Of a stretch of 44,029 nucleotides of DNA, positions 130 to 38,594 are shown piece after piece. The DNA comes from an uncultured Candidatus Saccharibacteria bacterium (GTDB lineage: Bacteria; Patescibacteriota; Doudnabacteria; UBA920): positions 144,877-188,905 of the forward strand of contig CAYQEU010000002.1 of NCBI GenBank assembly GCA_964416765.1, read 5' to 3'. The translations under genes and the position numbers were made by a program. Positions within the stretch are counted from its first letter, which is position 1. Each line of letters starts with the position of its first letter. The notes beneath the pieces are model-generated. The model saw nothing but the letters and a program-made list of their open reading frames with translations. It was not told the DNA's origin and ran no database searches.

Positions 130-1275
130 ATGGAATTATCAATCGAACAACAAATTTTAGAATATTGGAATAAGGCCAAAAAGGTCTTGATTGTACTGCC
201 GGAAAACCCGGGCATTGACCGGACCTGTTCGGCCGTGGCTTTGCAGTTAATGTTCCAGAAAATGCAGAAGCAGGCTGACATTGTTTGCCCAACCGGAATG
301 GAAACCGCTAACCTGGATTTCATTCCGGCTACTCCGGCTGTTATGGAGAAACCAGGGGACCAGAACATCCTGACCATAAGCCTTGATACTTCCCGGTCCA
401 AGCTGGATGAGCTAAGCTACCAGGCCGAAGAAACCGCGGTAAAAATCTTCCTAAAGCCAAAAAACGGCCAGTTTAGTCCCAATGACATCGGTGTTAGCGT
501 GGGCGGTTCCGCTTACGACCTTATTATCTGCGTTGGCGCGCAAAACCTGGAAGCCTTTGGCAAAGCTTACCAGGAAAGTCCTCAGCTCTTTTTCAACACT
601 CCCAAAATTAATATTGATACCAACCCGGCTAACGAGTATTACGGCACAATTAATTTAGTTGATGTGACCGCGAGCTCCATTTCAGAAGTTGTTACGCGCT
701 TGATTGACGCCAATGAACCGGGAGTGATTGACGAAAACATTGCCACCGTTCTGATGGGAGGCATTATTGCCCATACCCATTCATTCCAGGAAGGTTCAAC
801 CACTCCGCAGACTTTATCCATGGCTTCTAAATTGATTACGCAAGGGGCCCGGCAGCAGGACATTATTAAAACTTTGTACAAGACGAAAGACTTCGCGTTG
901 TTAAAGTTGTGGGGTCGCGCGCTGGCCCGCATTAAAACCGCCAAGGAAGGGTCGTTCTTATATTCTTTCCTTCTGGAATCTGATTTTGACAAGACTGGTT
1001 TATCGATTGACTCCCTGCCTCAAGTCATGTCGGAACTAATAGACAATGTGGCGGGATTCCAGGCAGTCGCCCTCATGGGTGAACAGCAGGGGAAAGTGGC
1101 TATTATAGTTTCCGGGCTTCCGCACGCCGGCGTAGATAAGATTGCCCGCGCGCTAGACCAGCGGGCCAAGCCGATTTCGTTGCCAGCTGGATCACACCTG
1201 TACAAATCCATGCAGGTAGAACTTACTGGAGTACTCGAAGAAGCCGAGAACAAACTGCTTTCCGCTGTGTTATAA
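130..1275 (+). CDS. DHH/NrnA-family phosphoesterase-like protein with degenerate catalytic motifs
   Basis: PENPGIDRTCSAVAL resembles motif I (HxxPDxDxxGS); INIDTNPANEYYG sits at the IDHH position; ASSISE and IATVLMGGIIAHTHSF match downstream DHH motifs. Start chosen at 130 (ORF track starts at 97). Confidence 0.75.
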   Translation: MELSIEQQILEYWNKAKKVLIVLPENPGIDRTCSAVALQLMFQKMQKQADIVCPTGMETANLDFIPATPAVMEKPGDQNILTISLDTSRSKLDELSYQAEETAVKIFLKPKNGQFSPNDIGVSVGGSAYDLIICVGAQNLEAFGKAYQESPQLFFNTPKINIDTNPANEYYGTINLVDVTASSISEVVTRLIDANEPGVIDENIATVLMGGIIAHTHSFQEGSTTPQTLSMASKLITQGARQQDIIKTLYKTKDFALLKLWGRALARIKTAKEGSFLYSFLLESDFDKTGLSIDSLPQVMSELIDNVAGFQAVALMGEQQGKVAIIVSGLPHAGVDKIARALDQRAKPISLPAGSHLYKSMQVELTGVLEEAENKLLSAVL

Positions 1276-1312: not shown

Positions 1313-2977
1313 ATGGCTCACAATTTTTTGAACCCGAGCCAGCAAGACCTGGTTAGGGCGCTGCGCGAACAAAATTTAAACCTACAGGAACGGGAAGTGC
1401 AAGGCAAAGCTACCTCGCTGGGTTTGCCATATATGAATCTTCATGGCTTTCCCATGGATTTAAACGTGGTGGGGTTGTTTACCGAAGAAGAAGCCCGGAA
1501 CTCCTACAGCGTCCCTTTTTTCCGAGAGGGCCGCGACCTCCGCATTGGAACCACTGACCCAAAGAACGCGCTGCTGAAAACCAAAATCGAAGAACTAGGC
1601 AAGAAATTCAAGATTACCCTGTATTTTATTTCCCCGAGCAGCCTGAACGCTACCTTAAAGCTTTTCGCTAAGATCGCCCACCCGGCAGCCCGTGTTGCCG
1701 CCAAAGTTGAGGTTGACCCACAAATTGACTATGTTGCCCGCGTGCGCGATTTAATTCCCGCGCCAGAGAAAGTTTATCCGGCAGCCACCGACATTATCGC
1801 CGACCTCATGGGGGCGGCGCTCGCGCTCGATGCTTCTGATATCCACTTGGAACCGGAAGAGCATATGTTCAAAGTCCGTTACCGCATTGACGGAATTTTG
1901 CAGGATATGGTTCACATTGACCCCGCGCAGCAGAACGCCATTCTTTCCCGCATCAAGATCATCTCCAAACTTAAATTAAACGTCACCAATGTTCCGCAGG
2001 ACGGCCGGTTTACTTTCTATTCCGGCAAGGGCGCGGAGGTTAAGCCAGTGGACGTGCGTGTTTCTTTTCTGCCTTCCGCGTTTGGCGAAGCGGTGGTTAT
2101 GCGTCTGCTCGGTACGTCGGCCACCAATCTGAAGTTGGACCAGCTTGGCCTCCGGGGGAAAGCCTACAAAGTTATTGAGCACCAGTTGAGCAAACCGAAC
2201 GGGATGATAATTACAACCGGCCCGACCGGAAGCGGAAAAACCACCACCCTGTACGCGTTCCTGAACCAGTTAAATGAACCGGGCGTGAAGATCATCACTT
2301 TGGAAGACCCGGTTGAATATAAGCTGGAAGGAATCCAGCAAACTCCGATTGACCATAACGTTGATTTCAATTTTGCCAAAGGTCTGCGCGCAATATTGCG
2401 CCAGGATCCTGACATAGTGATGGTTGGTGAAATCCGTGATGGCGAAACCGCGGAGACAGCGCTCCAAGCCGCGCTCACGGGCCACATTGTTTTGTCCACT
2501 TTGCACACTAACGACGCTTCCGGCGCCATTCCCCGTTTGATTGTTATGGGAAGCAAGCCTTTTATTATCGCGCCCGCCATGAACGCTATTATCGCCCAGC
2601 GTCTCGTGCGCAAGATTTGTCAGCAGTGCAAACAGCCGGCGGAAGTTAGCGAAGAGAACATGGGTTACGTGAAGGATATACTGTCGGCTATCCCGGAATC
2701 GTCGGGGACCGAAGTTCCCAAGGAGCTGAAATTCTACCACTCACCCGGATGCAGTGCCTGTCATAATTTAGGCTACCAGGGGCGCATTGGTATTTACGAA
2801 GTCATGGAAGTTGATGACGAAGTCAAAGAGTTAATTAACAAAGAAGCTTCAGCTGTTGAATTGAAACAGCACGCCGTAAAGGCCGGAATGATTACCATGG
2901 TGCAGGATGGTTTACTCAAAGCGCTTGATGGCATTACTGACGTTGAAGAAGTATTCCGCGTGGCCGGGGACTGGTAG
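1313..2977 (+). CDS. PilB/GspE-family type IV pilus / T2SS assembly ATPase
   Basis: Walker A GPTGSGKTT, Asp box TLEDPVEY, LRQDPDIVMVGEIRD, His box LSTLHTND, Zn motif CQQC...CSAC..GYQGRIGIYE, N-terminal T2SSE_N-like domain. Confidence 0.95.
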   Translation: MAHNFLNPSQQDLVRALREQNLNLQEREVQGKATSLGLPYMNLHGFPMDLNVVGLFTEEEARNSYSVPFFREGRDLRIGTTDPKNALLKTKIEELGKKFKITLYFISPSSLNATLKLFAKIAHPAARVAAKVEVDPQIDYVARVRDLIPAPEKVYPAATDIIADLMGAALALDASDIHLEPEEHMFKVRYRIDGILQDMVHIDPAQQNAILSRIKIISKLKLNVTNVPQDGRFTFYSGKGAEVKPVDVRVSFLPSAFGEAVVMRLLGTSATNLKLDQLGLRGKAYKVIEHQLSKPNGMIITTGPTGSGKTTTLYAFLNQLNEPGVKIITLEDPVEYKLEGIQQTPIDHNVDFNFAKGLRAILRQDPDIVMVGEIRDGETAETALQAALTGHIVLSTLHTNDASGAIPRLIVMGSKPFIIAPAMNAIIAQRLVRKICQQCKQPAEVSEENMGYVKDILSAIPESSGTEVPKELKFYHSPGCSACHNLGYQGRIGIYEVMEVDDEVKELINKEASAVELKQHAVKAGMITMVQDGLLKALDGITDVEEVFRVAGDW

Positions 2978-6264: not shown

Positions 6265-8313
6265 TTACTTCCTCAGCTTCATCACTTTCTTTATTTCAGC
6301 CAGCTTGTCCCGGATGCTGGCCGCCAATTCAAACTCCAGGTTTTGTGAGGCCATGTCCATTTGTTCTTCCAACTCGCGGATGTAGTACTTCAGTTCCTGC
6401 TTGTCCATTTTGCTCGGGTCGGCATCGGCATCAGTATCAATTCCCGGCAGGCTTTCTTTCATGCCGCCTAAACGGGACTCGTCGATTTTCTTTTGGACCG
6501 TGGTTGGGGTGATGCCGTGCTGTTTGTTGTATTCTTCCTGGATTTTGCGGCGGCGCGTGGTTTCGGAAATGGCGCGCTGCATGGAACCGGTCATGTTATC
6601 GGCGTACATTATGACGTGGCCATTAACGTGGCGCGCGGCGCGTCCCATGATTTGCATGAACGCCGTTTCACTGCGCAGGAATCCTTCCTTGTCCGCGTCC
6701 AGGATGGCGACCAATGAAACTTCAGGAAGGTCGAGCCCTTCGCGGAGCAGGTTAATCCCAATGACCACGTCGTACACCCCCAGACGCAAGTCGCGCAAGA
6801 TTTCCAGCCGTTCAAAAGTTTCGACTTCGGAATGGAGGTACTGCGATTTAATACCCGCTTCCTTGATGTATTCAGACAACTCTTCCGCCATGCGCTTTGA
6901 AAGCGTGGTTACCAATACTCTCTCGTGTCTGGCAATCCGCATGTGGATTTGTTCGAGCAGGTTATCAACCTGGTTCTTGATGGGCTGAATCTCGATGGTC
7001 GGGTCGAGCAACCCAGTCGGACGGTTAATTTGTTCGACAATTGTGGTTTTGCTTAGGTCACCGGTAATGGGGGATTTTTTCTTGTCAGTCACCAGGTAGT
7101 TTTCCTGCAGGCTTTTTCTTATCTCGTAAGGGGCGGGAGTGGCTGATACGTAAACCGCCTGGTGGACTTTAGCGTCAAATTCATCAAATTTTAACGGCCG
7201 GTTATCCAAGGCGGAGGGCAGGCGGAAGCCATAATCAATTAAAGTGGATTTGCGGGAACGATCACCTTCGTACATGGCCCCGATTTGTGGGATGGTTTGG
7301 TGTGATTCATCAATGAACAGCAGAAAGTCATCTGGGAAGTAGTCGATTAGCGTGGAAGGCGGTTCGCCGGGCGCGCGGCCGTCCATATGACGGGAGTAAT
7401 TTTCAATTCCGGAAACAAAACCGGTATTAGTAAGCATCTCCAGGTCAAAATTGGTGCGCTGTTCTATGCGCGCCGCTTCCAGGACTTTGCCTTCGGTTTT
7501 AAATTTGGCGACTTGTTCCAGGAGTTCCTTACGGATGTTTTCCGCTGCTTCTTGGATTTTGTCCTCCGGGGTTACGAAATGCTTGGCTGGGAAGATCTTA
7601 ACCGAATTCAGTTCTTCCAAAGTCTCGCCGGAAATGATATGCCGCCGTTCTATTTTTTCAATCTCATCGCCAAAAAGTTGCAGCCTTATAATAGTGTCTT
7701 CGGAAGCCAGCACTATTTCCACGGTATCTCCCTGCGCGCGGTAAGTGCCGCGATGCAGGTCCATGTCATTGCGCTGGAACTGCAAATCAGTCAGGCGGCG
7801 GAGCAGGCGGTCGCGTTTCAGGGTTTGGCCGCGTTTAATCTCCAGCGACAATTCCAGGTAATCAGCCGGATTTCCCAAACCGTAAATGCAGGAAACCGAC
7901 GCCACTATTAATACATCGGACCTGGTGAGCAAGCTTTGGGTGGCCGCGTTGCGCAAGCGGTCGATTTCCTCGTTAATCTGGGTTTCTTTTTCAATGTAGG
8001 TGTCACTGCGGGGGATGTAAGCCTCCGGCTGGTAGTAGTCATAGTAGGACACAAAATAATGCACCGCGTTGTCGGGGAAAAACTGCTGGAACTCCGAGGC
8101 AAGCTGGGCGGCCAAAGTTTTATTGTGGCAAATAACCAAAGTGGGCTTTTGGATTTGCGCCACTATGTTGGCCATGGTAAAAGTTTTCCCAGACCCGGTC
8201 ACGCCGAGCAGGGTCTGGTGGCGGTAGCCTTCTTTTAAGGACTTAACCAACCCTTCAATTGCTCTGGGTTGGTCGCCAGCGGGGGAGTATTTAGTTTCGA
8301 GTTGGAATTTCAT
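6265..8313 (-). CDS. uvrB: excinuclease ABC subunit B
   Basis: GDQPRAI, LLGVTGSGKTFT, HNKTLAAQL, VSYYDYYQPEAY, DESH, INLLREGLDLPEV, GRAARH and a C-terminal UVR domain. Confidence 0.99.
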   Translation of the reverse strand: MKFQLETKYSPAGDQPRAIEGLVKSLKEGYRHQTLLGVTGSGKTFTMANIVAQIQKPTLVICHNKTLAAQLASEFQQFFPDNAVHYFVSYYDYYQPEAYIPRSDTYIEKETQINEEIDRLRNAATQSLLTRSDVLIVASVSCIYGLGNPADYLELSLEIKRGQTLKRDRLLRRLTDLQFQRNDMDLHRGTYRAQGDTVEIVLASEDTIIRLQLFGDEIEKIERRHIISGETLEELNSVKIFPAKHFVTPEDKIQEAAENIRKELLEQVAKFKTEGKVLEAARIEQRTNFDLEMLTNTGFVSGIENYSRHMDGRAPGEPPSTLIDYFPDDFLLFIDESHQTIPQIGAMYEGDRSRKSTLIDYGFRLPSALDNRPLKFDEFDAKVHQAVYVSATPAPYEIRKSLQENYLVTDKKKSPITGDLSKTTIVEQINRPTGLLDPTIEIQPIKNQVDNLLEQIHMRIARHERVLVTTLSKRMAEELSEYIKEAGIKSQYLHSEVETFERLEILRDLRLGVYDVVIGINLLREGLDLPEVSLVAILDADKEGFLRSETAFMQIMGRAARHVNGHVIMYADNMTGSMQRAISETTRRRKIQEEYNKQHGITPTTVQKKIDESRLGGMKESLPGIDTDADADPSKMDKQELKYYIRELEEQMDMASQNLEFELAASIRDKLAEIKKVMKLRK

Positions 8314-10700: not shown

Positions 10701-11080
10701 GCTATTGTGATGTTTGGCTCGCCGCCGTAATGCACTTCCAGTTTTTTGCCCCCTTTCACGTGCCACAGTTTTGCCAAGTCATCCGGAATTTTTTCTTTGA
10801 TGATCGCGGTGACCGGTATTTCCAGAGCGAACCCCAAAGCTTGGGCCAACGCGATGCCAACGCGGATGCCGGTAAAAGAACCGGGCCCGGAGCAAACTAT
10901 AATTTTTTCTAATTTTTTGGGATTGGCTTTGCTGGACTTAATGAATTTCTGGAGGAGTTCAAGAGTTTTATAATTTTCGTTGAAAGCGAATTGCTTGCTG
11001 AATACCTTTGCCTTGCCCGAATGGGTGACTAACGCGAACCGCAAGCCGTTGTGGTCGCTGGTGTCTATGAAAAGGAGCAT
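10682..11080 (-). CDS. tsaB: tRNA t6A biosynthesis protein TsaB, short form (132 aa)
   Basis: MLLFIDTS, IIVCSGPGSFTGIRVGIALAQALGFAL; 1-nt TAATG overlap with murE. Confidence 0.9.
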   Translation of the reverse strand: MLLFIDTSDHNGLRFALVTHSGKAKVFSKQFAFNENYKTLELLQKFIKSSKANPKKLEKIIVCSGPGSFTGIRVGIALAQALGFALEIPVTAIIKEKIPDDLAKLWHVKGGKKLEVHYGGEPNITIAKKEKR

Positions 11081-12414
11081 TAGAAAGTTAGTTTGGTTAA
11101 TTCTTCGCGGGTTACCGTGCGATCATCCCAGTCCACCATTTGCCCGCCAGCCAAAACCATCTTTTGTTCTGAACCTTTTCCGGTGATGAGAACAAGGTCG
11201 TTTGGATTAGCTTTGGCCAACGCCGCGGCTATGGCCTGGCGACGGTCGAGAACAATAAAGAGGTTTTGTCCTAAAATTTTACCCGCGCTCTCCGCACCCT
11301 TTTGCATAATGGCAGCAAGGTAGGCAGGGTCATCGTCGTATGGATCGTCGGTCGTTACATATACAAAGTCAGCGTTTTTCCCGGCTAAAAGGCCTAGAGT
11401 CGTCTTGTTCGACATGTCCCGGCCTCCGCCAGTCGGGCCCAAAACCTGGATTACTTTGCCGTGCTCCCAGTTGCTAACAGTATCATAAAGTTGTTGCATT
11501 CCGGTGGGTTCGTGGGCGTAATCCACCACTACGGTAAAGGGCTGGGTGGCAATGACTTCCACGCGGCCCGGTACAACCGAAACACGGGCTAACGCTTCGC
11601 TGCAAGTTTCCAGGTCAATGCCGAGTGATAGCGCGGTGCATACCGCCGCCAAAGAGTTGTAGACATCAAACTTGCCCTTGAGCGCGAGCGTGAATCTTTG
11701 GTCATGGATTTTGAATTTTATACCGTCGAATGAGTACTCAATGTTAGTGGCGCGTACGTTAGCGGTTTCGTTGCTGACCCCATAACTAATATGCCGCTGG
11801 GCTTTGAAGTTCAAATAATATTGGCCATAGATGCTGTCCAAGTTGGCCACGATAGTCTTTTCCAGTTTCGGGTTAATGTGCAATTGTTGCTCGGTAATTT
11901 CGTGTTCGCTCAGCGAGCTGAACAACAAGCCTTTGGCGCGCTGATAATTATCAAAACTGCCATGAGCGTCCAGGTGTTCCGGCGTGAGGTTAGTAAACAC
12001 GGCAACATCAAAGAAAATATTTTTATGGCGGTTTTGGGCCAATCCTTCGCTGGTCATTTCGAGCACCGCGTATTTGCAGCCTTGCCTGACCATATGCGCC
12101 ATCCACTTTTGGAGGTTCCATCCTGACATGGTGCTCATCTTGAAAGTGTTAAGGTGGGTACCGTCGCCCAAGTCATAGGTCGCGGTGCTAGCGTAGCCTG
12201 TTTTCTTTCCGGCTTCTCGCAGGATTGAAGCAATCAAACTAGTGGTGGTGGTTTTGCCTTTGGTGCCGGTTACGCCAATCACCACCATCTTTTTGGATGG
12301 CTGGCCATATATATAGGAAGCGACCATGGCCAAACCGCCATGGTAGTAAGGGCGGATGGCTTTTAACCGCTCTTCGGAAAGGAATGATTTGATAAAGTTT
12401 TTTAACGCTTGCAT
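11080..12414 (-). CDS. murE: UDP-N-acetylmuramoyl-tripeptide synthetase (Mur ligase, MurE type)
   Basis: VIGVTGTKGKTTT, VLEMTSEGLAQNR, AVFTNLTPEHLDAHGSFDNYQRAK, VPGRVE, VVVDYAHEP, TDDPY, LITGKGSE. Confidence 0.9.
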   Translation of the reverse strand: MQALKNFIKSFLSEERLKAIRPYYHGGLAMVASYIYGQPSKKMVVIGVTGTKGKTTTTSLIASILREAGKKTGYASTATYDLGDGTHLNTFKMSTMSGWNLQKWMAHMVRQGCKYAVLEMTSEGLAQNRHKNIFFDVAVFTNLTPEHLDAHGSFDNYQRAKGLLFSSLSEHEITEQQLHINPKLEKTIVANLDSIYGQYYLNFKAQRHISYGVSNETANVRATNIEYSFDGIKFKIHDQRFTLALKGKFDVYNSLAAVCTALSLGIDLETCSEALARVSVVPGRVEVIATQPFTVVVDYAHEPTGMQQLYDTVSNWEHGKVIQVLGPTGGGRDMSNKTTLGLLAGKNADFVYVTTDDPYDDDPAYLAAIMQKGAESAGKILGQNLFIVLDRRQAIAAALAKANPNDLVLITGKGSEQKMVLAGGQMVDWDDRTVTREELTKLTF

Positions 12415-16392: not shown

Positions 16393-17367
16393 TTAAGAAA
16401 GTTTTCTGTTAAGTGACCTGAGTAACTTATATGCATTATACCATAGCGGTTTGTAGACAATATCTTCGGCGGAAGGGTAATGGACTTGCTGGCCGCCCCA
16501 GCCAAGCTTAAACCGAACAAACCCCGGAGTCTGCCCGCTGGCCGTTTCAATGCCCCAAAAATCATATGTCTCAAACCCCTCTTGTTTGGCGTCTTTTATG
16601 GCCTGCCAGTGCATCAGGTAAGGGGCCATGACGTTCCGGTCGGTGTCATGCGTGCCGCCAAAAAGATAGGTGCGGGTTGGGCCGTAATCAACCATGAGAG
16701 AGGAAGCCAAAACTTTTCCATTGAAGCTGGCCGTGTAAGTTTGGGCGTTAACCGATTTATTAGCGGCAAAAAATTCGCAAAGCTTTGTGTAGTATTGGGC
16801 CGGATGGTCCTTGAAGCCCTGCCGTTTGGAAGTTACTTGGATGAGCGCAACTGCTTCTGAAACATTTCCGGTTGCAACCTCCACGCCATGGCGCTCGGCC
16901 ACCCGGATGTTGTAACGGGTTTTATGGTGCATGTCGGCCAGTAATTCCTCTTCGGATTTAGAAAGGTCCAAGACCAAAGTCTTGCCGGGCTGGATGTGGG
17001 AAGTGACTCTGTCCTCAGCCAGCAGGAATTGTTTAGGTTCAAGCCGCAGGAACCAGGCCGTGGCAAAACGTTTTTTGATGCTGTCTAAAAATAAATTAAG
17101 AGCGTCCGGATTTTCACCAACTGTCAGCGGGCCATAGGGAACATATATATAGTGGCCTCCAAGTTTCGGGATAGGGGTCTTAAAAATTTGCGCGGCAACC
17201 AGAATGTTTCCTTCCGCATCGGTAACTGCCGGCCGCATAGTTTGGCGCCCTTGGGTTTGCATCCACTCACCCCAAGCCGGGGACTGCAAAAAAGAACCAC
17301 TGGGATGGCTGGAAACAAAACGCTCCAATTCTTCCGCCGGCAGGTTATCAGTAAATCGCAATTCCAT
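16393..17367 (-). CDS. FemAB/FemX-family peptidoglycan peptidyl transferase
   Basis: SFLQSPAWG, YIYVPYGP, TLVLDLSKSEEELL..MHHKTRYNIR, YLFGGT, MAPYLMHW..IK, YDFWGI, GFVRFKLGWGG. Confidence 0.9.
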   Translation of the reverse strand: MELRFTDNLPAEELERFVSSHPSGSFLQSPAWGEWMQTQGRQTMRPAVTDAEGNILVAAQIFKTPIPKLGGHYIYVPYGPLTVGENPDALNLFLDSIKKRFATAWFLRLEPKQFLLAEDRVTSHIQPGKTLVLDLSKSEEELLADMHHKTRYNIRVAERHGVEVATGNVSEAVALIQVTSKRQGFKDHPAQYYTKLCEFFAANKSVNAQTYTASFNGKVLASSLMVDYGPTRTYLFGGTHDTDRNVMAPYLMHWQAIKDAKQEGFETYDFWGIETASGQTPGFVRFKLGWGGQQVHYPSAEDIVYKPLWYNAYKLLRSLNRKLS

Positions 17368-17927
17368 TAGTGGGTTCCAAGCATTTTTAATGCTTCACGG
17401 ATCTGGTCAGACATGTCGGCGCTTTGAAGTTTGGGGAGAATATCGCGAACTTCCTTGGCGTTGTAGCCGAGGTTGATGAGCGCGTCATAAACATCGCTTT
17501 GACTGTCGCTTGCTCCGGACAAACCAACATCTGTCATTTTGTTCTTCAGTTCCAGGATAATGCGCTCCGCGGTTTTCTTTCCCACTCCAGACATCCGAGT
17601 GAAGATAGCCACGTCACCGTTGCTGATGGCTTGTTGCAGTACGTCAATATTCGCGGCGGAAACTATAGCCAGCGCCATTTTCGGACCGACTCCGCTGATA
17701 GTAATGAGCAACTCGAAAAACTGAAGGGTAGGGAAATCGGGCATACCGAACAGGGTTTGGCCGTCATCACCTGATTTGTGGTATATATAGAGCTCGGCAT
17801 CGTCGCCCACGTTATGTTTTTCTAAAATTTCGGGGGTGACGAGGACTTTGTAGCCAATGCCGGCATTTTCCAACAAAACGAAAGAGCTTGTTTTTTGGAG
17901 AACTTTTCCCTTTAAATAAGCAATCAT
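17367..17927 (-). CDS. ruvA: Holliday junction branch migration protein RuvA
   Basis: MIAYLKG, LENAGIGY, FELLITISGVGPKMALAI, GVGKKTAERIILELK, ALINLGY; TAATG overlap with the femX-like gene. Confidence 0.97.
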   Translation of the reverse strand: MIAYLKGKVLQKTSSFVLLENAGIGYKVLVTPEILEKHNVGDDAELYIYHKSGDDGQTLFGMPDFPTLQFFELLITISGVGPKMALAIVSAANIDVLQQAISNGDVAIFTRMSGVGKKTAERIILELKNKMTDVGLSGASDSQSDVYDALINLGYNAKEVRDILPKLQSADMSDQIREALKMLGTH

Positions 17928-29495: not shown

Positions 29496-31022
29496 CTAGG
29501 CTCGCGCCTGGTCTTTTGTTTTTTCTATTGTGAAGTAAGAAATAACCGCGGCGACATAACACATGACCGCCATTATTACCATGGCCCAGCGGAACCCGTG
29601 GAGAAACGATTCCTTAACCGCCATTTGCGCCGCTTGGTGCTCGGTTTGGTTTAGCTCGGCGGGAATAGTCAGTCCGGACATTTTGTCTTTTTGTAGAAGG
29701 AGCTGCTGTTTGCCAGCTTCACTAATCGACGACCCTTGCACTTTATGTTCAAACTGGGTTTGGAACAGTGACAAAACCACCATCCCCATAATGGCTATAG
29801 CCATCAATCCCGCCACACGGGAAACGGCATTGTTGGCGCCGGAAGCGGCGCCAGAATAAGCTGGTGGCACCTTTAATGCTGACTTGGTTAAAGGCGCGAT
29901 CAGTGTTGCCATGCCGAGCCCGAATAGAATTTCAATTGGCAAGAAAGTCACCCAATAGTTGGCATGAGCTGATGGCAACGCCAGCAAGGCGAATGACGTG
30001 CCAACAATTAGGGGCGCCAGGATCATCATAGGACGCGCGCCATATTCATCGGCAAATTTACCGCCTAGACCGGAGAAGAAAGTAATAATCAGGATGTCCG
30101 GCAGAAGTGCTAAACCGGTGATGCTCGGGGAGTAGCCCTGTACTTGCTGGAAATTTAATGTGAGCAAAAAAATCATTCCTGCCAGGCCAAAGTAAACCAA
30201 CAAAGTAACTAGATTCGAGCCAAGTACTGTAGGCACGGAAAATATGTTTAATGGCAGGAGAGGGGACTTGCTTTTCTTTTGTACCAATCCAAAAGCAATT
30301 AGACTCAGTAAACCAGCTCCGACGGGGAGCCAAACCATGGTGTTGCTCCAACCCAGTCCCGGCGCTTTGATTAACCCATAGGTAAGCCCGGCAAGGCCAA
30401 GAATAATTAGCAGGGTATGGCTGAAATGGACATTCTCGGAACGCTGTTCCGTGTTGGCGGGAACAAACTGCCAACTGCAAAATAAGGCGATAAGGCCAAC
30501 CGGTACGTTGATAAGGAAGATGGAGGGCCAGCCAAAGTGCTGTACCAGGAAGCCTCCAGCCAGAGGTCCCATCGCGGAAATAGCGCCGCCCAAACCAGCC
30601 CAGATCCCAATGGCTTTACCCCGGCCACTTTCCCCGAAAGAGGTATTGATGATCGCCAGACTTTGCGGGATCATTAAGGCCGCGGCCGCCCCCTGAAGAA
30701 TTTGGAACGTCGCCAGTTGCCCCACATTTTGGGCGAGGCTGGAAGCGAGCGAGGTGCAGACAAAAAATACAATGCCAATGTTAAAGATGCGCTTTCTCCC
30801 AAAACGGTCACCTAATGACCCGCTAATTAACAGGAGCGATGCGAGGGACAGGCTGTACCCTGTCAGTATCCATTGCAGGCCTCCGACGGTGGCGCCGAAT
30901 TTTGCCTGGATTGTGGGTAAAGCAATGTTGGTGGTAGACGTGTCTAAAAACGCCAGCCCGCTGGCAAGAATTGTTGTCAGCAGAATCAGTCGTCCGGCAC
31001 TGGTTTTGGTTGAGTATTCCAT
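29496..31022 (-). CDS. MFS transporter, DHA2 (EmrB/QacA) family
   Basis: FLDTSTTNIALPTI, motif A GSLGDRFGRKR, WPSIFLINVPVG, about 14 TM segments. Confidence 0.93.
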   Translation of the reverse strand: MEYSTKTSAGRLILLTTILASGLAFLDTSTTNIALPTIQAKFGATVGGLQWILTGYSLSLASLLLISGSLGDRFGRKRIFNIGIVFFVCTSLASSLAQNVGQLATFQILQGAAAALMIPQSLAIINTSFGESGRGKAIGIWAGLGGAISAMGPLAGGFLVQHFGWPSIFLINVPVGLIALFCSWQFVPANTEQRSENVHFSHTLLIILGLAGLTYGLIKAPGLGWSNTMVWLPVGAGLLSLIAFGLVQKKSKSPLLPLNIFSVPTVLGSNLVTLLVYFGLAGMIFLLTLNFQQVQGYSPSITGLALLPDILIITFFSGLGGKFADEYGARPMMILAPLIVGTSFALLALPSAHANYWVTFLPIEILFGLGMATLIAPLTKSALKVPPAYSGAASGANNAVSRVAGLMAIAIMGMVVLSLFQTQFEHKVQGSSISEAGKQQLLLQKDKMSGLTIPAELNQTEHQAAQMAVKESFLHGFRWAMVIMAVMCYVAAVISYFTIEKTKDQARA

Positions 31023-31023
31023 T

Positions 31024-33186
31024 TTAGCCTACAGGCCAATTCTCAATAATGAGGTATTGGTGGGTTACTAATTTGTTTTGGTATAACTTCTGCCAAATTT
31101 CCTCGGTAATAAATGGCATGAAAGGGTGAAGAAGTTTTAGGGTGATAATGAGCTGGTGGAGCAGGATCTTTTTTGTGTTGTCAGCAAGCTTTTCGTCCTG
31201 CATTTGCCCCTTGCTTTTTTCAATATAGACATCAGCCAGTTCGTGCCAGGTAAACTGGTAAGCTTCCTGCGCTGCTTCATGCAGCCGGAACCCGTTCAGG
31301 TGCTCAGTTACAGCCCGCACAGTTCCGTTGAGTTTATCCAGAATATATTTATCATCTTCGGTTATCGCCTCAAATTGGTAGTCGCTTTGCTCCACATTGG
31401 ACATAATGAACCGAGCGATGTTCCAAAGCTTGTTTGCGAAATGTTTCATCCCCTTTATTTTTTCTTCGGCCAGAGGGATATCGTTGCCGGCCGCGGTGGA
31501 GAATACCAGAGCAAACCGCAGGGCGTCGGTGCCATATGTATCTATTACCCCGAGCGGGTCAACAACGTTGCCTTTGCTTTTGCTCATCTTTTGCCGGTCT
31601 TTGTCGCGAACCAGACCGTGGAGGAAAACGTTTTCAAACGGTGCTTTGCCGGTGCGGTAGTAGGACAGCATAACCATGCGGGCTACCCAGAAGAACAGAA
31701 TATCCCACCCCGTTTCCATTACGGAAGTAGGGAAGTAGGTGTCCATGTCCGAGCTTCCTTTGGCCATCAATGTCGCGTAAGGCCACTGCCCAGAAGAGAA
31801 CCAGGTATCGAAGGTGTCAGGGTCTTTTTCCAAATTAGCCCCGGCGCATCTAGGGCAAGCTGCGATGGTGTCGTCGGTATCCACTATAATTTCAAAACAA
31901 CCTTGGCAGTATTTAACGGGGATGGGGATGCCCCACCAAATCTGGCGAGAGATAGGCCAGTCACGAATATTGTCCATCCAGTGCATGAAAGTTTTTTCAA
32001 ACCTGTCCGAAAGGATTTTTACCTCGCCATTGTTGACCGCGCTAACCGCCATATCGCGCAGGGACGGCCGTCCGTCCGGCAGAGGTTTGGTCATCGCGAT
32101 ATACCATTGCGGGATAACGATTGGTTCAATAATAGTGTTGCATTTGTAGCACAGCTGGACATTGTGCTTGTAATTGTCTTCAGTTTTTACCAGGAGTCCC
32201 TTACTTTGCAGTTTCTCCACGATAGCCGGTCGGGCTTTTTTGATATGCATGCCAGCAAATTCCCCCGCGACCGGCAAAAGCTTGTCGTTCTTGTCGATGA
32301 TCTGTTCCATGTCCAATCCGTGGCGCTGGGCGATTTCAAAGTCAGTCGCGTCATGCCAGGGAGTAATGGTCATGGCGCCAGTACCGAATTCCATGTCTAT
32401 GGCCGCGTCCTTAATAATAGTGGCGGTAACGGGTCCATTAATCCATTCCAGTTCAATTTTTTGCCCGTCCTGGTATTCAGCGTATCGCTTGTCATCCGGA
32501 TGAACCACTACATATTTATCGCCGAACTTGGTTTCCGGCCGCGCCGTTCCAATAACGAAGGGGCCGTACTGCAGGTAATAAAATGGGTCTTCCCGCTCTT
32601 CGTATTTGGTTTCCAAATCAGACAGCGCGGTTTGGTGACGGGGACACCAGTTGCAGATGCGGTCGCCGCGGTAAACCAACCCGTCTTCATACATTTTGCG
32701 GAAAGTCTCATAAACTACTTTGACCACTTCCGGATCAAGCGTAAAGGTGTTGCGTGACCAGTCTGCTGACGCGCCCATCCTTTTAATCCCGTTTTCCGAA
32801 ATGTGCTTGTTGTTCTGCACGAAGTCCCAAACTTCTTTGTAGAAATCTTCGCGTTCCATGGTCAGGCGTGTCCGGTCTTCCTTTTCCAGTTTCTTTTCGA
32901 ATACCACCTGGGTTTCAAATCCCGCGTGATCGGTACCAGGGATCCACAGCGCGCGCTTTCCGTTCATGCGCTGGTATCGAATCAAAATATCCTCAATGGT
33001 CAGGCCCAAAGCATGGCCCACGTGCAAAGGCGCGTTCGCGTTTGGCGGCGGCATGACAATTGTGTAACTTTCCTTGTCTGCCGCGTCAGGCAAATTATCC
33101 GGGTTAAAGTATCCGGATTCTTCCCACATTTTGTAAATGCGGCTTTCTACGTCACTGGCGTTGTAGGATTTTTCTAGTTCTATCAT
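31024..33186 (-). CDS. valS: valine--tRNA ligase, 720-aa form without the C-terminal coiled coil
   Basis: MPPPNANAPLHVGHA, PGTDHAG, WPISRQIWWG, DPDTFDTWFSSG, KMSKSKGN, DALRFAL. Start taken at 33186 (MIELEKSY). Confidence 0.97.
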   Translation of the reverse strand: MIELEKSYNASDVESRIYKMWEESGYFNPDNLPDAADKESYTIVMPPPNANAPLHVGHALGLTIEDILIRYQRMNGKRALWIPGTDHAGFETQVVFEKKLEKEDRTRLTMEREDFYKEVWDFVQNNKHISENGIKRMGASADWSRNTFTLDPEVVKVVYETFRKMYEDGLVYRGDRICNWCPRHQTALSDLETKYEEREDPFYYLQYGPFVIGTARPETKFGDKYVVVHPDDKRYAEYQDGQKIELEWINGPVTATIIKDAAIDMEFGTGAMTITPWHDATDFEIAQRHGLDMEQIIDKNDKLLPVAGEFAGMHIKKARPAIVEKLQSKGLLVKTEDNYKHNVQLCYKCNTIIEPIVIPQWYIAMTKPLPDGRPSLRDMAVSAVNNGEVKILSDRFEKTFMHWMDNIRDWPISRQIWWGIPIPVKYCQGCFEIIVDTDDTIAACPRCAGANLEKDPDTFDTWFSSGQWPYATLMAKGSSDMDTYFPTSVMETGWDILFFWVARMVMLSYYRTGKAPFENVFLHGLVRDKDRQKMSKSKGNVVDPLGVIDTYGTDALRFALVFSTAAGNDIPLAEEKIKGMKHFANKLWNIARFIMSNVEQSDYQFEAITEDDKYILDKLNGTVRAVTEHLNGFRLHEAAQEAYQFTWHELADVYIEKSKGQMQDEKLADNTKKILLHQLIITLKLLHPFMPFITEEIWQKLYQNKLVTHQYLIIENWPVG

Positions 33187-33196
33187 AGTGTTGGTT

Positions 33197-33392
33197 AAAA
33201 ATAAAAACACCCAGAAAGAGTGTTCAAGAGCCCGCACTATATATAGCGGCGGACGGTACCATCTTGATTGCCGCCCAAGTACTTATGACGGCCTTAATTG
33301 TGCTGCTAACGGGCAGCCCCGGCGGGTTCTACTCTCGCTAAATTCCGGTGCGATTTCTTCCCGCGCCCCTGTGGTGACAGCCACAGGATCGG
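33197..33392 (-). ncRNA. T-box riboswitch (ultrashort Stem I, class II-like fold) with Val specifier GUC
   Basis: In order on the minus strand: Stem I CCUGUGG-cuGUCa-CCACAGG; Stem II with GAAGAA/AGUAGAA internal loop; Stem IIA GCUGC-CCGUUA-GCAGC; Stem III GCCGUC..GGCGGC; antiterminator UCAAGA-[UGGUACC]-GUCCGC...GCGGGC-UCUUGA; then a hairpin and U-tract, directly upstream of valS. Confidence 0.9.
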
Positions 33393-33406
33393 CTAAACTT
33401 GAGCGT

Positions 33407-33435
33407 ATTATATGCCAAAATAGCCCAAAAGTAAA
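33407..33435 (-). promoter_or_regulatory. sigma70 promoter of the T-box/valS leader
   Basis: Minus strand TTTACT (33435-30), 17 bp, TATAAT (33412-07), right after the tsaD stop codon. Confidence 0.75.
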
Positions 33436-33436
33436 G

Positions 33437-34489
33437 CTATCTAAGCTCCCACGCCGGATCAGCCTTAACCTTGTCCAAACGCGCTGGTTTTGCCCCGCCG
33501 CGCAGGTTAAAGTAAGCGGCTATGGCAATCATGGCCGCGTTGTCGGTACACAGCGCGAATGGCGGTACCGTGAAAGTCATTTTGTTTGCATTGGCATCCT
33601 TTTCCAGACGAGCGCGCAGTACACGGTTGGCGGCAACCCCTCCCGCCAGGGCAATTGTCTTGCATGCATACAACTTTGCCGCGCGCAAAGCTTTTTGTGC
33701 GAGCACGTCCACGGCCGCTTGTTCAAAAGAATGGGCGATATCGGCCTTAAGTTTGGGGGTCAGTCTTTTTTGCGCCTTAACATAGTTAGCCACTGCGGTT
33801 TTCAATCCGGAAAACGAGAAATTGTAATTCTTTTGGCTTAGCATGGGGCGTGGGAAATTTATGGACTCCGACCCTTGCAGAGCCAGTTTGCTAATCTCCG
33901 GCCCACCAGGATAGGGGAGTCCCAAAACGCGGGCAACTTTATCGAACGCTTCCCCAACCGCGTCGTCCACGGTATTCCCAATAACCTTAAAGTGGTAGTA
34001 GTCTTTCATGAGCAATAGCATGGTGTGGCCGCCGCTCACTACTACGGCCAAAGCAGGGAATTGTATTTTAGCGTCACCGCCAAAAGCGGAGTACAGGTGC
34101 CCGGCCATATGGTTGGTGGGAAGAAGGGGAACGCCGCTGGCGTAAGAAAGGCCTTTGGCGAATTCCACGCCCACGACCAAAGATACAACCAATCCGGGAC
34201 CGGAAGTAACGGCGATGTAATCCAAACCGTCCAGGCCAACATTCGCCTGTTCCAAAGCCAAGCTCACAGCGGGCATAATGTTTTGCAGATGGGCCCGTGC
34301 CGCTACTTCGGGAACCACTCCGCCGGTCTTCCGGTGTAGCGGTATCTGCGACTTCACCACCGAAGATTTTATGGTAAAATCGGGCTTAATTGAGCCTAAT
34401 TCACCTACTAAAACACTAGCCGCGGTTTCGTCGCAGCTAGTTTCGATTCCGAGTATTGTAACGGTTTCTCTGGATTTAGGTGTTGCCAT
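33437..34489 (-). CDS. tsaD: tRNA t6A transferase TsaD
   Basis: ILGIETSCDETAA, GGVVPEVAARAH, VTSGPGL, HMAGH, VSGGHT, DDAVGEAFDK, FSFSGLKTA, LAGGVAAN, CTDNAAMIA. Start taken at 34489 (MATPKSRE). Confidence 0.97.
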   Translation of the reverse strand: MATPKSRETVTILGIETSCDETAASVLVGELGSIKPDFTIKSSVVKSQIPLHRKTGGVVPEVAARAHLQNIMPAVSLALEQANVGLDGLDYIAVTSGPGLVVSLVVGVEFAKGLSYASGVPLLPTNHMAGHLYSAFGGDAKIQFPALAVVVSGGHTMLLLMKDYYHFKVIGNTVDDAVGEAFDKVARVLGLPYPGGPEISKLALQGSESINFPRPMLSQKNYNFSFSGLKTAVANYVKAQKRLTPKLKADIAHSFEQAAVDVLAQKALRAAKLYACKTIALAGGVAANRVLRARLEKDANANKMTFTVPPFALCTDNAAMIAIAAYFNLRGGAKPARLDKVKADPAWELR

Positions 34490-35174
34490 TTTGTCTTTCA
34501 GAATTTGATTCGTTAGTGATTTCCGCCTCACGGCGATCGGAGGCATCAGAATGATTCGGTACTGGATGACTTTTCTTTTCATCTTCTCCTTCCGCTTCTT
34601 CACGGTCATTCTTTCTCCGTTTCTTCATCCACCGCGCCAGAACCATTAAGAGTAGTGAAGCGAGCAACGCGGCCGTGGTCCCCAGCGCCGTAATTTTGGT
34701 TAAGTCACTAATCCTGTTCTCCACTTCACGCAATGAGCGCGCGACTAATACAAACCCTTTTTGCTGGCCGTTGTCGAACCGAACCACTACCGCTGCCTGT
34801 CTTACCCCTTCTTTTGGCTGCCAGGTAAAGCGGTTTTGCCCGGTTTTACGGGCGGCCTCAAACACACCGGTGGGAGGATCAACCGGCTTGCCATCAACTT
34901 TGGCGGAAGTCTGGATGGGCTTGCCACTGTCATCGTAAACCCCAATATTTAAAGAAAGGGTTTTATCTATATCCACGCTCAAGCTCTGGGGAACGAGGTT
35001 GGCAACCGGGAGACCTTTATTTAGGGCTGTTGCCGCGTCTTCTGCAATCTGGATTTGCTGGTCATTGGCGGACATGCGGTAGTTTTGCTGGACCGCGACG
35101 TACGCAGTACCACTTAAAATGATGATAGTTGCCGCCAGTGGCAACCATTTCCATAAGATTTTTTTGATGTGCAT
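34476..35174 (-). CDS. two-TM membrane protein with a Cache/PDC-like extracytoplasmic domain and no signalling output domain
   Basis: TM, about 130-aa external domain (IGVYDDSGKPIQTS...GFVLVARSLREVE), TM, then a charged low-complexity tail; no HAMP, HisKA or HATPase. Confidence 0.7.
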   Translation of the reverse strand: MHIKKILWKWLPLAATIIILSGTAYVAVQQNYRMSANDQQIQIAEDAATALNKGLPVANLVPQSLSVDIDKTLSLNIGVYDDSGKPIQTSAKVDGKPVDPPTGVFEAARKTGQNRFTWQPKEGVRQAAVVVRFDNGQQKGFVLVARSLREVENRISDLTKITALGTTAALLASLLLMVLARWMKKRRKNDREEAEGEDEKKSHPVPNHSDASDRREAEITNESNSERQNGNT

Positions 35175-35293: not shown

Positions 35294-36397
35294 ATGAAAC
35301 CAAAACAAATTCACCATAAAATTGCTTGGGTAACGGCCACTATAATGATGGCGTCCGTTTTGCTCATGCCTTTCTCTGAGGCCCATGCCGCCCAGATCAC
35401 CAGCCTTTCCGATACTCTTTCCCGTTTAAAGGATTCGGTGAACGCCAACCATGAGTTATTTATGGTTTTGCCTGGCGGTATTGCCGCCGGTAAGGCCCTG
35501 ACCCTTACCTTTTCGGGTTTTGTGGGTTCCAGCGTAAACGCCATCGTGTTTGGCGACGTGGACTTCGCTACCGGCAGCTCGGGCACCTGTTCCAGCGCCA
35601 CCTACACTGAGCAAACCCTTGCCGGTTCTCCCTCGGGTGCCACTTGGGGTGTTTCTGCGGGTTCATCCGCGATTGTAATTACCTCCGGTACTGGTACTTC
35701 TACAGCCGGTAACTGTGTCCGCGTCAGGATTGGTACCAACGCCACCACTGGTGGAACCGGTACCCACCAAATTACCAATGGAACCGCTGCCACTGACCAT
35801 ACCGTTGTAGCTTCCACCAACATTACTTCACCGGATTCCGGCACCTTGGATATTGATATCATCACCGATGACCAAGTTACCATTTCCGCTACCGTAACCC
35901 CGACCATTACTTTCACTATCGACACGAACTCAATTAGCTTTGGTACTTTGAGCTCCTCGACCGGGCGATGGGCCACTTCCGGCGGCGGCGCTAACGCTAC
36001 CGCGGCCACCCTCCCAAGCGCTGGCAACACCTTAACAGTTGCCACCAACGCGGCGAGCGGGTATGTCCTTACTTATAACGGCGCGACCCTGACTTCAGGT
36101 GGTGGCGCTACCATTACCGCGACTTCCATTTCCAGCGATAGCGACGGTGCACCGGGTAGTTCACAGTTCGCCATGACGGCAAGTACTAGCGGTGCTGGTT
36201 CGGTAACTGCCGGTTATGCCCGCAGCACTAACAGTAGCTGGAACTTTGTCCCCTCGACCACTACCACTTTACTTACCAACGGTGCGCCAACCAACACTGA
36301 AACCATTACTATTTCCTACTTGGCAAACATTCCGGGTGCCCAGGCTGCCGGTGCGTACTCAACAACCCTTACTTACATAGCCACTGGAACATTCTAG
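35294..36397 (+). CDS. secreted Thr/Ser/Gly-rich beta protein with a WxL/pilin-like C-terminal domain
   Basis: Signal peptide ending AHA; Cys pair; C-terminal domain SISFGTL...TLTVATNAASGY...GAYSTTLTYIATGTF; no membrane anchor. The CDS is secure; the family label is inference. Confidence 0.75.
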   Translation: MKPKQIHHKIAWVTATIMMASVLLMPFSEAHAAQITSLSDTLSRLKDSVNANHELFMVLPGGIAAGKALTLTFSGFVGSSVNAIVFGDVDFATGSSGTCSSATYTEQTLAGSPSGATWGVSAGSSAIVITSGTGTSTAGNCVRVRIGTNATTGGTGTHQITNGTAATDHTVVASTNITSPDSGTLDIDIITDDQVTISATVTPTITFTIDTNSISFGTLSSSTGRWATSGGGANATAATLPSAGNTLTVATNAASGYVLTYNGATLTSGGGATITATSISSDSDGAPGSSQFAMTASTSGAGSVTAGYARSTNSSWNFVPSTTTTLLTNGAPTNTETITISYLANIPGAQAAGAYSTTLTYIATGTF

Positions 36398-37475: not shown

Positions 37476-38594
37476 ATGAAAACAAAGGTTTTTGCTCGTG
37501 TTTTAATAATGATTATGGCGCTGTCCATCCCGGGCATCGCGCTTGCGCAAACCCTCTCGAGCCCTAATTATAAAATTGAAGATCCGACCATAGACACCGG
37601 GGGCGGGGAACTTTCCAACTCCGCCAACTTCCAGTCGCGTGGTTCCCTCGGGGATGTCGCTGACGACGGCAGCAACTCCAGCTTGTTCAAAGTATTCGCC
37701 GGATTTTTCTTGCCCGCCTACCCGGGAATACCCGGTACCCCGACTCTGACCAATACCGGTGGCACGCTATATAACTCCCTCGATTTCGTGGTCAACAAAG
37801 GCAACGGCCAGCAGGATGACACGACTTACGCTATCGCGATTTCATCCGATAACTTTGCCACTACCTACTTCATCCAGAACGACGATACTCTGGGCACCAG
37901 CGAAGCATGGCAGACCTACACCAACTGGGGCGGTGTTAGCGGCGAGCGAGTGACTGGCCTTTCTCCCAGCACTACATACAAGATCAAAGTGAAAGCCAGC
38001 TTCGGCAGCGGCAGTAACGCGGCCGATTCTGAAACTGGTTATTCCGACGTTGCCACCGCCACAACCGCGGCTCCCAACCTGGTCATTGTTTTCTCGGGAG
38101 TCTCCAGCGGGACCACCATTGGCGGGGTGACCACCACGACTACTTCCAGCACCAACTCGATTAGCTACGGCGCGCTATCAATTAACTCACCCTTAACTTC
38201 AGCCCACCAAGTTACGGTTACCACTAATGCCGTGGCCGGCTACACCACGACCCTACAGGATGACGGCGAACTCCGTACTACTGGAGGTTCCCAGATTAAC
38301 CCGATTACATCCTCTAACGCGTCACCAGGTACATGGAATGCGGCCGGTACCGTTACCTCGGGACGGTTCGGTTACCACACCACAGACGCGACTCTTTGCA
38401 CGGGTACAGGCGGTCGTTTTTCTTCCAATGACACTTACGCCGCCATGACCACGTCCCCGCTGGAAGTTGCTTGCAACACTGGCCCGGTCACCAGCGAAAC
38501 CACGACCGTGATTTTTAAGCTTGAAATTGGCAGCCTTCAGGCTAACGGCAGCTATGCCAACATTGCTACTTACATAACAACCGCGCAGTTTTAA
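37476..38594 (+). CDS. secreted protein with an FN3-like segment and a WxL/pilin-like C-terminal domain
   Basis: Signal peptide ending ALA; GLSPSTTYKIKVKA (FN3-like); C-terminal SISYGAL...VTVTTNAVAGY...GSYANIATYITTAQF, paralogous to 35294..36397. Confidence 0.75.
   Translation: MKTKVFARVLIMIMALSIPGIALAQTLSSPNYKIEDPTIDTGGGELSNSANFQSRGSLGDVADDGSNSSLFKVFAGFFLPAYPGIPGTPTLTNTGGTLYNSLDFVVNKGNGQQDDTTYAIAISSDNFATTYFIQNDDTLGTSEAWQTYTNWGGVSGERVTGLSPSTTYKIKVKASFGSGSNAADSETGYSDVATATTAAPNLVIVFSGVSSGTTIGGVTTTTTSSTNSISYGALSINSPLTSAHQVTVTTNAVAGYTTTLQDDGELRTTGGSQINPITSSNASPGTWNAAGTVTSGRFGYHTTDATLCTGTGGRFSSNDTYAAMTTSPLEVACNTGPVTSETTTVIFKLEIGSLQANGSYANIATYITTAQF

Follow-up and report, generated by a model that had tools for sequence, protein, structure and literature searches.

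The valS leader and its locus

The window, the whole stretch of 44,029 nucleotides that was analysed, holds a T-box leader on its minus strand, within the 250 nt that separate tsaD (33437..34609) from the ATG of valS (Table 1). The downstream gene was identified as valS by the NCBIfam model NF004349, at 844 bits against a cutoff of 704. Its product matches positions 1-696 of the 860-position profile, the usual C-terminal coiled-coil domain being absent, and an MFS transporter gene (29496..31022) begins 2 nt past the valS stop. The closest ValRS relatives all came from Patescibacteria MAGs (Doudnabacteria and others) at 56-79% identity, supporting the guess of an earlier sequence-only reading of this DNA that the genome belongs to the CPR. 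Neither an ileS gene nor a tRNA gene was found in the window.

The sequence-only reading had listed a promoter and a series of T-box elements, and inspection of the sequence found every one of them at the minus-strand positions it had given. Two parts of that list needed revision. The helix named Stem IIA with loop CCGUUA (33317..33302) is the pseudoknot helix IIB, the true IIA being CGG/CCG and CCGUUA the F-box, and the hairpin with its U-run at 33225..33197 had been omitted.

Table 1. Features of the valS leader region, in window positions.
Feature	Position	Strand	Details
Promoter-like site (putative)	33407..33435	minus	-35 TTTACT 33435..33430, 17-nt spacer, -10 TATAAT 33412..33407; 10/12 matches
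Complete T-box leader	33393..33197	minus	between promoter-like site and valS
Ultrashort Stem I	33365..33393	minus	7-bp helix CCUGUGG/CCACAGG 33387..33381 / 33374..33368; apical loop CUGUCA 33380..33375
Stem II	33322..33364	minus	lower helix GCGGG/CCCGC; upper helix CGC/GCG; S-turn-type internal loop AAGAAAU opposite AGAGUAGAA
Stem IIA/B pseudoknot	33302..33321	minus	IIA CGG/CCG 33321..33319 / 33312..33310; IIB GCUGC/GCAGC 33317..33313 / 33306..33302
F-box CCGUUA	33312..33307	minus	within IIA/B pseudoknot
Linker ACAAUUAAG	33293..33301	minus	ends in AAG (33295..33293), in the place of the RAG motif 5' of Stem III
Stem III	33270..33292	minus	GCCGUC/GGCGGC, 11-nt loop; variable, many relatives without it
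Antiterminator	33224..33267	minus	A1 UCAAGA/UCUUGA 33267..33262 / 33229..33224; A2 hairpin 33254..33230
T-box bulge UGGUACC	33261..33255	minus	enclosed between A1 and A2
Terminator-like hairpin and U-run	33197..33225	minus	GAACACUC-UUUCU-GGGUGUUU (33225..33205), then UUAUUUUU (33204..33197); G33225 and A33224 shared with A1
valS	31024..33186	minus	720 aa; ATG 33186..33184; no Shine-Dalgarno upstream

The specifier GUC (33378..33376) lies in the apical loop of Stem I and is followed by a conserved purine, A33375. Beneath the 7-bp helix, three basal pairs (GCC/GGC, 33393..33391 / 33367..33365) above which a GAU bulge (33390..33388) can be drawn were kept as tentative, as shuffling gave them no support: across relatives the basal helix measured 4.2 bp against 3.65 bp in shuffles. 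Certain relatives have a convincing basal helix (GCUUU/AAAGC, AGUGUU/GACACU), and two loci described below, L041 and L016, retain a GCGAUGA...GAGC base resembling the K-turn region of a canonical Stem I. In most relatives Stem I and Stem II are separated by an extra hairpin (for example L001 at 1315..1337, L002, L024 and L011), which is missing from the window and from L054, L050, L009, L071 and L034. Stem III is missing in L006, L009, L011-L014, L024, L030 and L068. The AAG of the linker did not vary in alignment A3 and hardly varied in A5 and A8, which are larger; in the Mycobacterium tuberculosis ileS structure the RAG motif touches the tRNA 3' end (PMC11297988).

The promoter-like site proposed in the sequence-only reading is present where it was placed, but a match of the class TTTACT-17-TATAAT is not significant on its own (2 found in comparison with 0.9 expected). 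Relatives carry a comparable TTTACA-17-TAnnnT at the same distance; for a TANNNT box this spacing to Stem I was seen in 26 of 34 relatives, where 14.6 would be expected. The transcript probably starts at about 33400. Five relatives (L034, L039, L046, L061 and L071) share a 5' extension, AAAGCAGGUUUUCCAACCAACAAAAG, which is conserved and sits 40 nt before Stem I, downstream of the -10 box.

Conservation and covariation among relatives

Relatives were collected in two ways. The first set comprised 25 loci from species-representative genomes, fetched via ValRS alone and without reference to the RNA. Of these loci, 24 had upstream DNA, and in 14 of them the discriminator covariance model R1, which scores the window at 69.6 bits, detected a leader ahead of valS. 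The second set came from a metagenome scan with a pattern confined to the discriminator (AATCAAGNTGGNANC...CTTGARCAC), which returned 46 loci. On inspection, 33 of them were T-box leaders with Stem I, Stem II and IIA/B upstream, and the remaining 13 were unrelated coding sequence. valS followed all 28 of the metagenome leaders with enough downstream DNA. As the first set is blind to the RNA and the second to its decoding half, the two form independent tests. The leader is a real T-box, and its family is widespread in CPR metagenomes. With model R1 the window gave no other T-box, and none of the 58 loci (383 kb) gave a second.

In several relatives (L003, L004, L015, L010, L046, L060 and L029) an ORF or 300-1200 nt lies between the T-box terminator and valS. 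The intervening ORF of L003 (386..949) encodes 187 aa with the motif WRLITFDIPE...LQASVYISPY, and where such an ORF intervenes the leader may control a small operon. A further T-box candidate of ~95 nt was seen in a Collierbacteria MAG (L016, 1361..1480), with a K-turn-like base, a GUC loop, AGUAGAAC, UGGUACC and a classical terminator. It is without Stem II and IIA/B, scored only 13 bits with Rfam (E 0.64) and gave no match to model R1.

Across the 35 full leaders Stem I took 33 different helix sequences, 4-9 bp long, whilst the apical loop held GUC plus a purine in every valS leader. The commonest loop was CUGUCA, with CGUCA, UGUCA, CCGUCA, AUGUCA and UUGUCG also found, and four further valS leaders outside the 35 likewise had GUC. 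The sole exception was L041, whose loop CUGACA presents the Asp codon GAC followed by A, and whose bulge is UGGC rather than UGGU. Its downstream gene is aspS (NF001750, 575 bits against a cutoff of 443). Loop triplet and bulge thus follow the gene and the discriminator base, respectively, which is the signature of a working T-box. These results agree with the core of the sequence-only reading, namely that valS of a CPR genome is preceded by a T-box whose ultrashort Stem I shows the Val codon GUC in the terminal loop. It had also suggested aligning valS leaders as a check, and in that alignment GUC was kept throughout and the helices covary.

On the tRNA side, the U of UGGU had been said to fit the A73 discriminator of tRNA-Val. 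A73 was indeed seen, along with an encoded CCA, in a tRNA-Val(CAC) gene adjoining valS in a related contig (L013, 3779..3851). The gene lies ~120 nt downstream of valS in L013, past a strong terminator-like hairpin, and the arrangement was also seen in L014, L026 and L022. Three valS leaders (L009, L061 and L068) have the bulge UGGC, which would require a tRNA-Val with G73. No tRNA-Val(GAC) gene was seen in the window or its relatives, the latter giving only tRNA-Val(CAC). The leader very probably senses tRNA-Val.

Covariation was measured on modular alignments, and two shorter covariance models were used, because MAFFT on the whole leader (~208 consensus positions) misaligned Stem I and Stem II where inserts occur. 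Stem I was 88% paired over 30 sequences, with 7/7 pairs changed on both sides and a covariation of 0.93 compared with 0.26 when shuffled. The module of Stem II lower helix, IIA and IIB was 90.6% paired over 34 sequences (10/12 pairs changed on both sides; 0.64 versus 0.23 shuffled). Within it, the lower helix was 99.4% paired with both sides changed at 5/5 pairs, IIA was 100% paired, and IIB had both sides changed at 4/4 pairs. IIB-type complementarity of 3-6 bp, in many sequences, was present in 34/34 leaders, with its best run off the usual register in L030, L041 and L055. A1 and A2 were 96.4% paired over 31 sequences (8/11 pairs changed on both sides; 0.44 versus 0.14 shuffled), where the outer five A1 pairs were fixed by the search pattern in the metagenome set and carry no covariation evidence, leaving as free evidence the innermost A1 pair (A-U in 18, U-A in 12) and A2. 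In each module 0 of 500 shuffles reached the observed covariation, and slid controls gave at most 0.22. RNAalifold, run without a supplied structure, recovered both Stem II helices, IIA, A1 and A2, in total 22 pairs of which 17 had compensatory changes. The covarying helices bear out two proposals of the sequence-only reading, the Stem II with a GAAGAA / AGUAGAA S-turn-type loop at 33364..33322 and the antiterminator-type helix with the 7-nt bulge UGGUACC.

A leave-out covariance model of the module from Stem II to the linker was built from 28 relatives, with the window and its nearest relative L054 excluded. It gave a single match in the window, at 33368..33286, with 54.8 bits and an E-value of 2.5e-13 (44 kb); the next best hit scored 9.7 bits. 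Rfam, by contrast, returned no match in the entire window at gathering thresholds. Under permissive settings, in a search of 401 nt (33100..33500), the T-box model RF00230 that the sequence-only reading had named as a check aligned from first to last position over 33398..33223, with only 17.7 bits (E 0.076) against a gathering threshold of 93. In this alignment 76 Stem I model positions are replaced by 6 nt, whilst AGUA, CCGUUA and UGGUACC align; the low score is explained by the deletion of Stem I. None of 20 relatives reached the Rfam threshold, the best being L055 and L041 at 48-49 bits (E about 1e-7).

The output element

The hairpin and U-run occupy the same place in all relatives, with 5-11 U in the run. 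In the window no Shine-Dalgarno sequence was found within 30 nt of the valS ATG, and the hairpin ends 18 nt upstream, leaving the ATG uncovered. A Shine-Dalgarno-like motif precedes only 4 of 24 window genes. Since valS has no Shine-Dalgarno sequence and the genome rarely uses one, Shine-Dalgarno sequestration is not available here, and we infer from these sequence features that the output is transcription attenuation instead. The sequence-only reading had labelled the leader actinobacterial ileS-type; the label suits the tRNA-decoding half but not the expression platform, which has a hairpin and U-run in place of a Shine-Dalgarno sequestrator. Elsewhere in the window, TATAAT-like boxes lie 5-25 nt before the ATGs of 6265..8313(-), 11080..12414(-), 17367..17927(-), 35294..36397(+) and 37476..38594(+), which suggests leaderless or very short-leader mRNAs.

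The terminator is weak, at -8.7 kcal/mol, or -6.7 kcal/mol without the two nucleotides it shares with A1. It is weaker than the gene-end terminators of the window, which have 9-10 bp and 5-6 G-C pairs, and a simple terminator scan was not significant on its own. In this common form the terminator abuts the 3' strand of A1 with zero spacer and an overlap of only 2 nt, and the minimum-energy fold holds A1, A2 and a 6-bp terminator together. Across 32 abutting-form leaders the mean was -11.5 kcal/mol for the antiterminator and -8.3 for the terminator, whereas the TBDB supplement gives -7.4 and -19.5 kcal/mol for catalogued T-boxes. The stability relation is thus reversed. The junction itself is conserved: CUUGA(A/G)CAC was kept in 13 of 16 leaders found via ValRS alone (window included), and its purine covaries with its partner (A-U in 20, G-C in 9 and G.U in 1 of 31 aligned leaders, with another G.U in L015).

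Not all members have this form. In L016 and L041 the terminator is of the classical kind, overlapping the antiterminator (-28 and -24 kcal/mol against about -10). An outer helix in L010 (AAGCGCA/UGCGCUU, 1090..1169) encloses the entire antiterminator and ends at the U-run. Neither inspection by eye nor folding found a longer terminator overlapping A1/A2, or an upstream partner for GAACAC. A leader-peptide attenuator was considered and rejected: the sole AUG of the leader sits inside the T-box AAGAUGG and opens a frame of 8 codons. As terminator and antiterminator have only 2 nt in common, classical strand competition does not explain how tRNA prevents termination.

Proposed mechanism and relation to known T-boxes

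We consider it likely that, as a T-box riboswitch, the leader links valS expression to how far tRNA-Val is charged, through a terminator-type output. tRNA binding, the direction of regulation and the means of preventing termination we infer as follows. The anticodon of tRNA-Val(GAC) would read GUC from the apical loop of the Stem I hairpin, and the Stem II S-turn together with the IIA/B pseudoknot would form a binding pocket in place of the missing elbow-binding platform. The discriminator would consist of the AAG motif, Stem III, and A1 and A2 around UGGUACC, with the UGGU of the bulge pairing with the ACCA that uncharged tRNA leaves free at its 3' end. The weak hairpin and U-run would then terminate transcription unless uncharged tRNA locks the discriminator fold. 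Two forms of coupling can be envisaged. A tRNA-stabilised A1 may withhold the two basal pairs of the marginal hairpin, or Stem III and the tRNA may compete with the hairpin, sterically or by coaxial stacking, for the outer end of A1; Stem III has been reported to stack on the antiterminator (2023 preprint). The coupling would probably act through basal-pair loss, through steric or coaxial-stacking competition, or through both.

Other explanations were weighed against this one. A chance arrangement of intergenic hairpins would be in keeping with the Rfam result for the window (17.7 bits, E 0.076) and with a fold z-score for the leader of only -1.58, but it is refuted by the comparative data and has next to no probability left: the leave-out model gave one match in the window at E 2.5e-13, five helices covary, the specifier tracks the downstream gene, and L055 and L041 reach 48-49 bits on the Rfam T-box model. 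More serious is a translational T-box like that of actinobacterial ileS, in which the ribosome-binding region would be freed by uncharged tRNA-Val, with the hairpin serving as sequestrator or having no role in the decision. Every ultrashort Stem I T-box published is translational (PMC7583486; 2023 preprint), and the antiterminator-like fold is stabler than the hairpin that follows it, which parallels a report on the M. tuberculosis antisequestrator (PMC11297988). We nevertheless regard a translational output as unlikely, given the lack of a Shine-Dalgarno sequence within 30 nt of an ATG that lies 18 nt beyond the hairpin, the scarcity of such motifs among the window genes, the 5-11 U after the hairpin in every relative, and the long classical terminators that overlap the antiterminator in L016 and L041.

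Equally, the tRNA-binding domain could be real and the hairpin a constitutive leaky terminator or pause site, the leader acting via RNA stability or processing or via tRNA sequestration, or being a decaying relic. That terminator and antiterminator can coexist with 2 nt in common, and that several relatives have an extra ORF or several hundred nt before valS, would fit such a scheme. It is made quite improbable by the zero-spacer junction, which was kept in 13 of 16 leaders though stems elsewhere vary freely, and by the retention of AAG, UGGN, A1 and A2. Conservation of these motifs over ValRS identities of 56-79% argues against a relic. We therefore retain the terminator-type T-box as the preferred reading.

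In its described architecture the leader most resembles the ultrashort class found in actinobacterial ileS, with a terminal-loop specifier, no elbow platform and a reliance on Stem II and IIA/B (PMC7583486; PMC11297988). With the Mycobacterium smegmatis and M. tuberculosis ileS leaders (TBDB class II) it shares the short Stem I, the specifier in its terminal loop and the lack of a double T-loop platform, as well as the Stem II S-turn, the IIA/B pseudoknot, the F-box (CGUUA here, CGUCA in M. tuberculosis) and the linker. An RAG-type motif, Stem III, a UGGN bulge between A1 and A2 and a class I aminoacyl-tRNA synthetase gene downstream are also common to both. The specifier, by contrast, is GUC (Val) here, with GAC (Asp) in one relative, and AUC there; the gene is valS rather than ileS, the host belongs to the CPR/Patescibacteria rather than the Actinobacteria, and a hairpin and U-run replace the Shine-Dalgarno sequestrator. 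Many CPR relatives also differ from the ileS leaders in having no Stem III or an extra hairpin between Stems I and II.

Canonical transcriptional T-boxes (RF00230; Bacillus subtilis tyrS and valS; TBDB class I) have the same order of elements and the same AGUA, CCGUUA and UGGUACC motifs, and likewise combine an intrinsic-terminator-type output with a specifier codon ending in C. Stem I here lacks their K-turn, internal specifier loop, AG bulge and distal loop. The terminator here abuts the antiterminator, where the canonical one overlaps it, and is the weaker of the two, the reverse of the TBDB averages. The glyQS T-boxes of Bacillus and Geobacillus are also reduced and also control transcription termination, but they drop Stem II and IIA/B and retain a long Stem I, the opposite of the CPR valS leader (PMC7583486; PMC11297988).

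According to the 2023 preprint, all members of the ultrashort class regulate ileS. The TBDB class II model was built from ileS leaders, and its search was confined to Actinobacteria and to class I hits whose Stem I is truncated. In the literature we covered, which is incomplete, no description was found of ultrashort T-boxes regulating genes other than ileS, nor of any T-box in CPR, Patescibacteria or Saccharibacteria, and earlier cataloguing is possible. As the family is invisible to annotation at Rfam thresholds, it is probably missing from catalogues. Tentatively, and with rather less confidence than a firm proposal would need, we suggest that these leaders may form an undescribed CPR/Patescibacteria clade of T-boxes that combines an ultrashort Stem I with transcription termination and has Val and, at least once, Asp specificity. 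The commonest form of this possible clade would do without classical strand competition, its zero-spacer terminator being switched by basal-pair loss and/or by coaxial-stacking competition with Stem III and tRNA.

T-boxes are a model for how one RNA reads another structured RNA. Reviews hold that transcriptional T-boxes generally need a long Stem I platform, and they place ultrashort Stem I leaders solely in Actinobacteria, before ileS, with translational control (PMC7583486; 2023 preprint). A conserved, covarying CPR family that specifies Val and Asp and has a terminator-type output goes against every one of these links, and would widen the range over which the ultrashort design is known. The combination of an ultrashort Stem I with termination would, if true, contradict the view that transcriptional T-boxes need an elbow-binding Stem I for fast tRNA capture, and it would provide a naturally occurring case for examining whether a decision made during transcription really depends on rapid capture of the tRNA elbow. 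How the abutting terminator works is a well-defined mechanistic question that lends itself to testing. The family would also show a riboswitch class at work in tiny-genome organisms that rarely use Shine-Dalgarno sequences.
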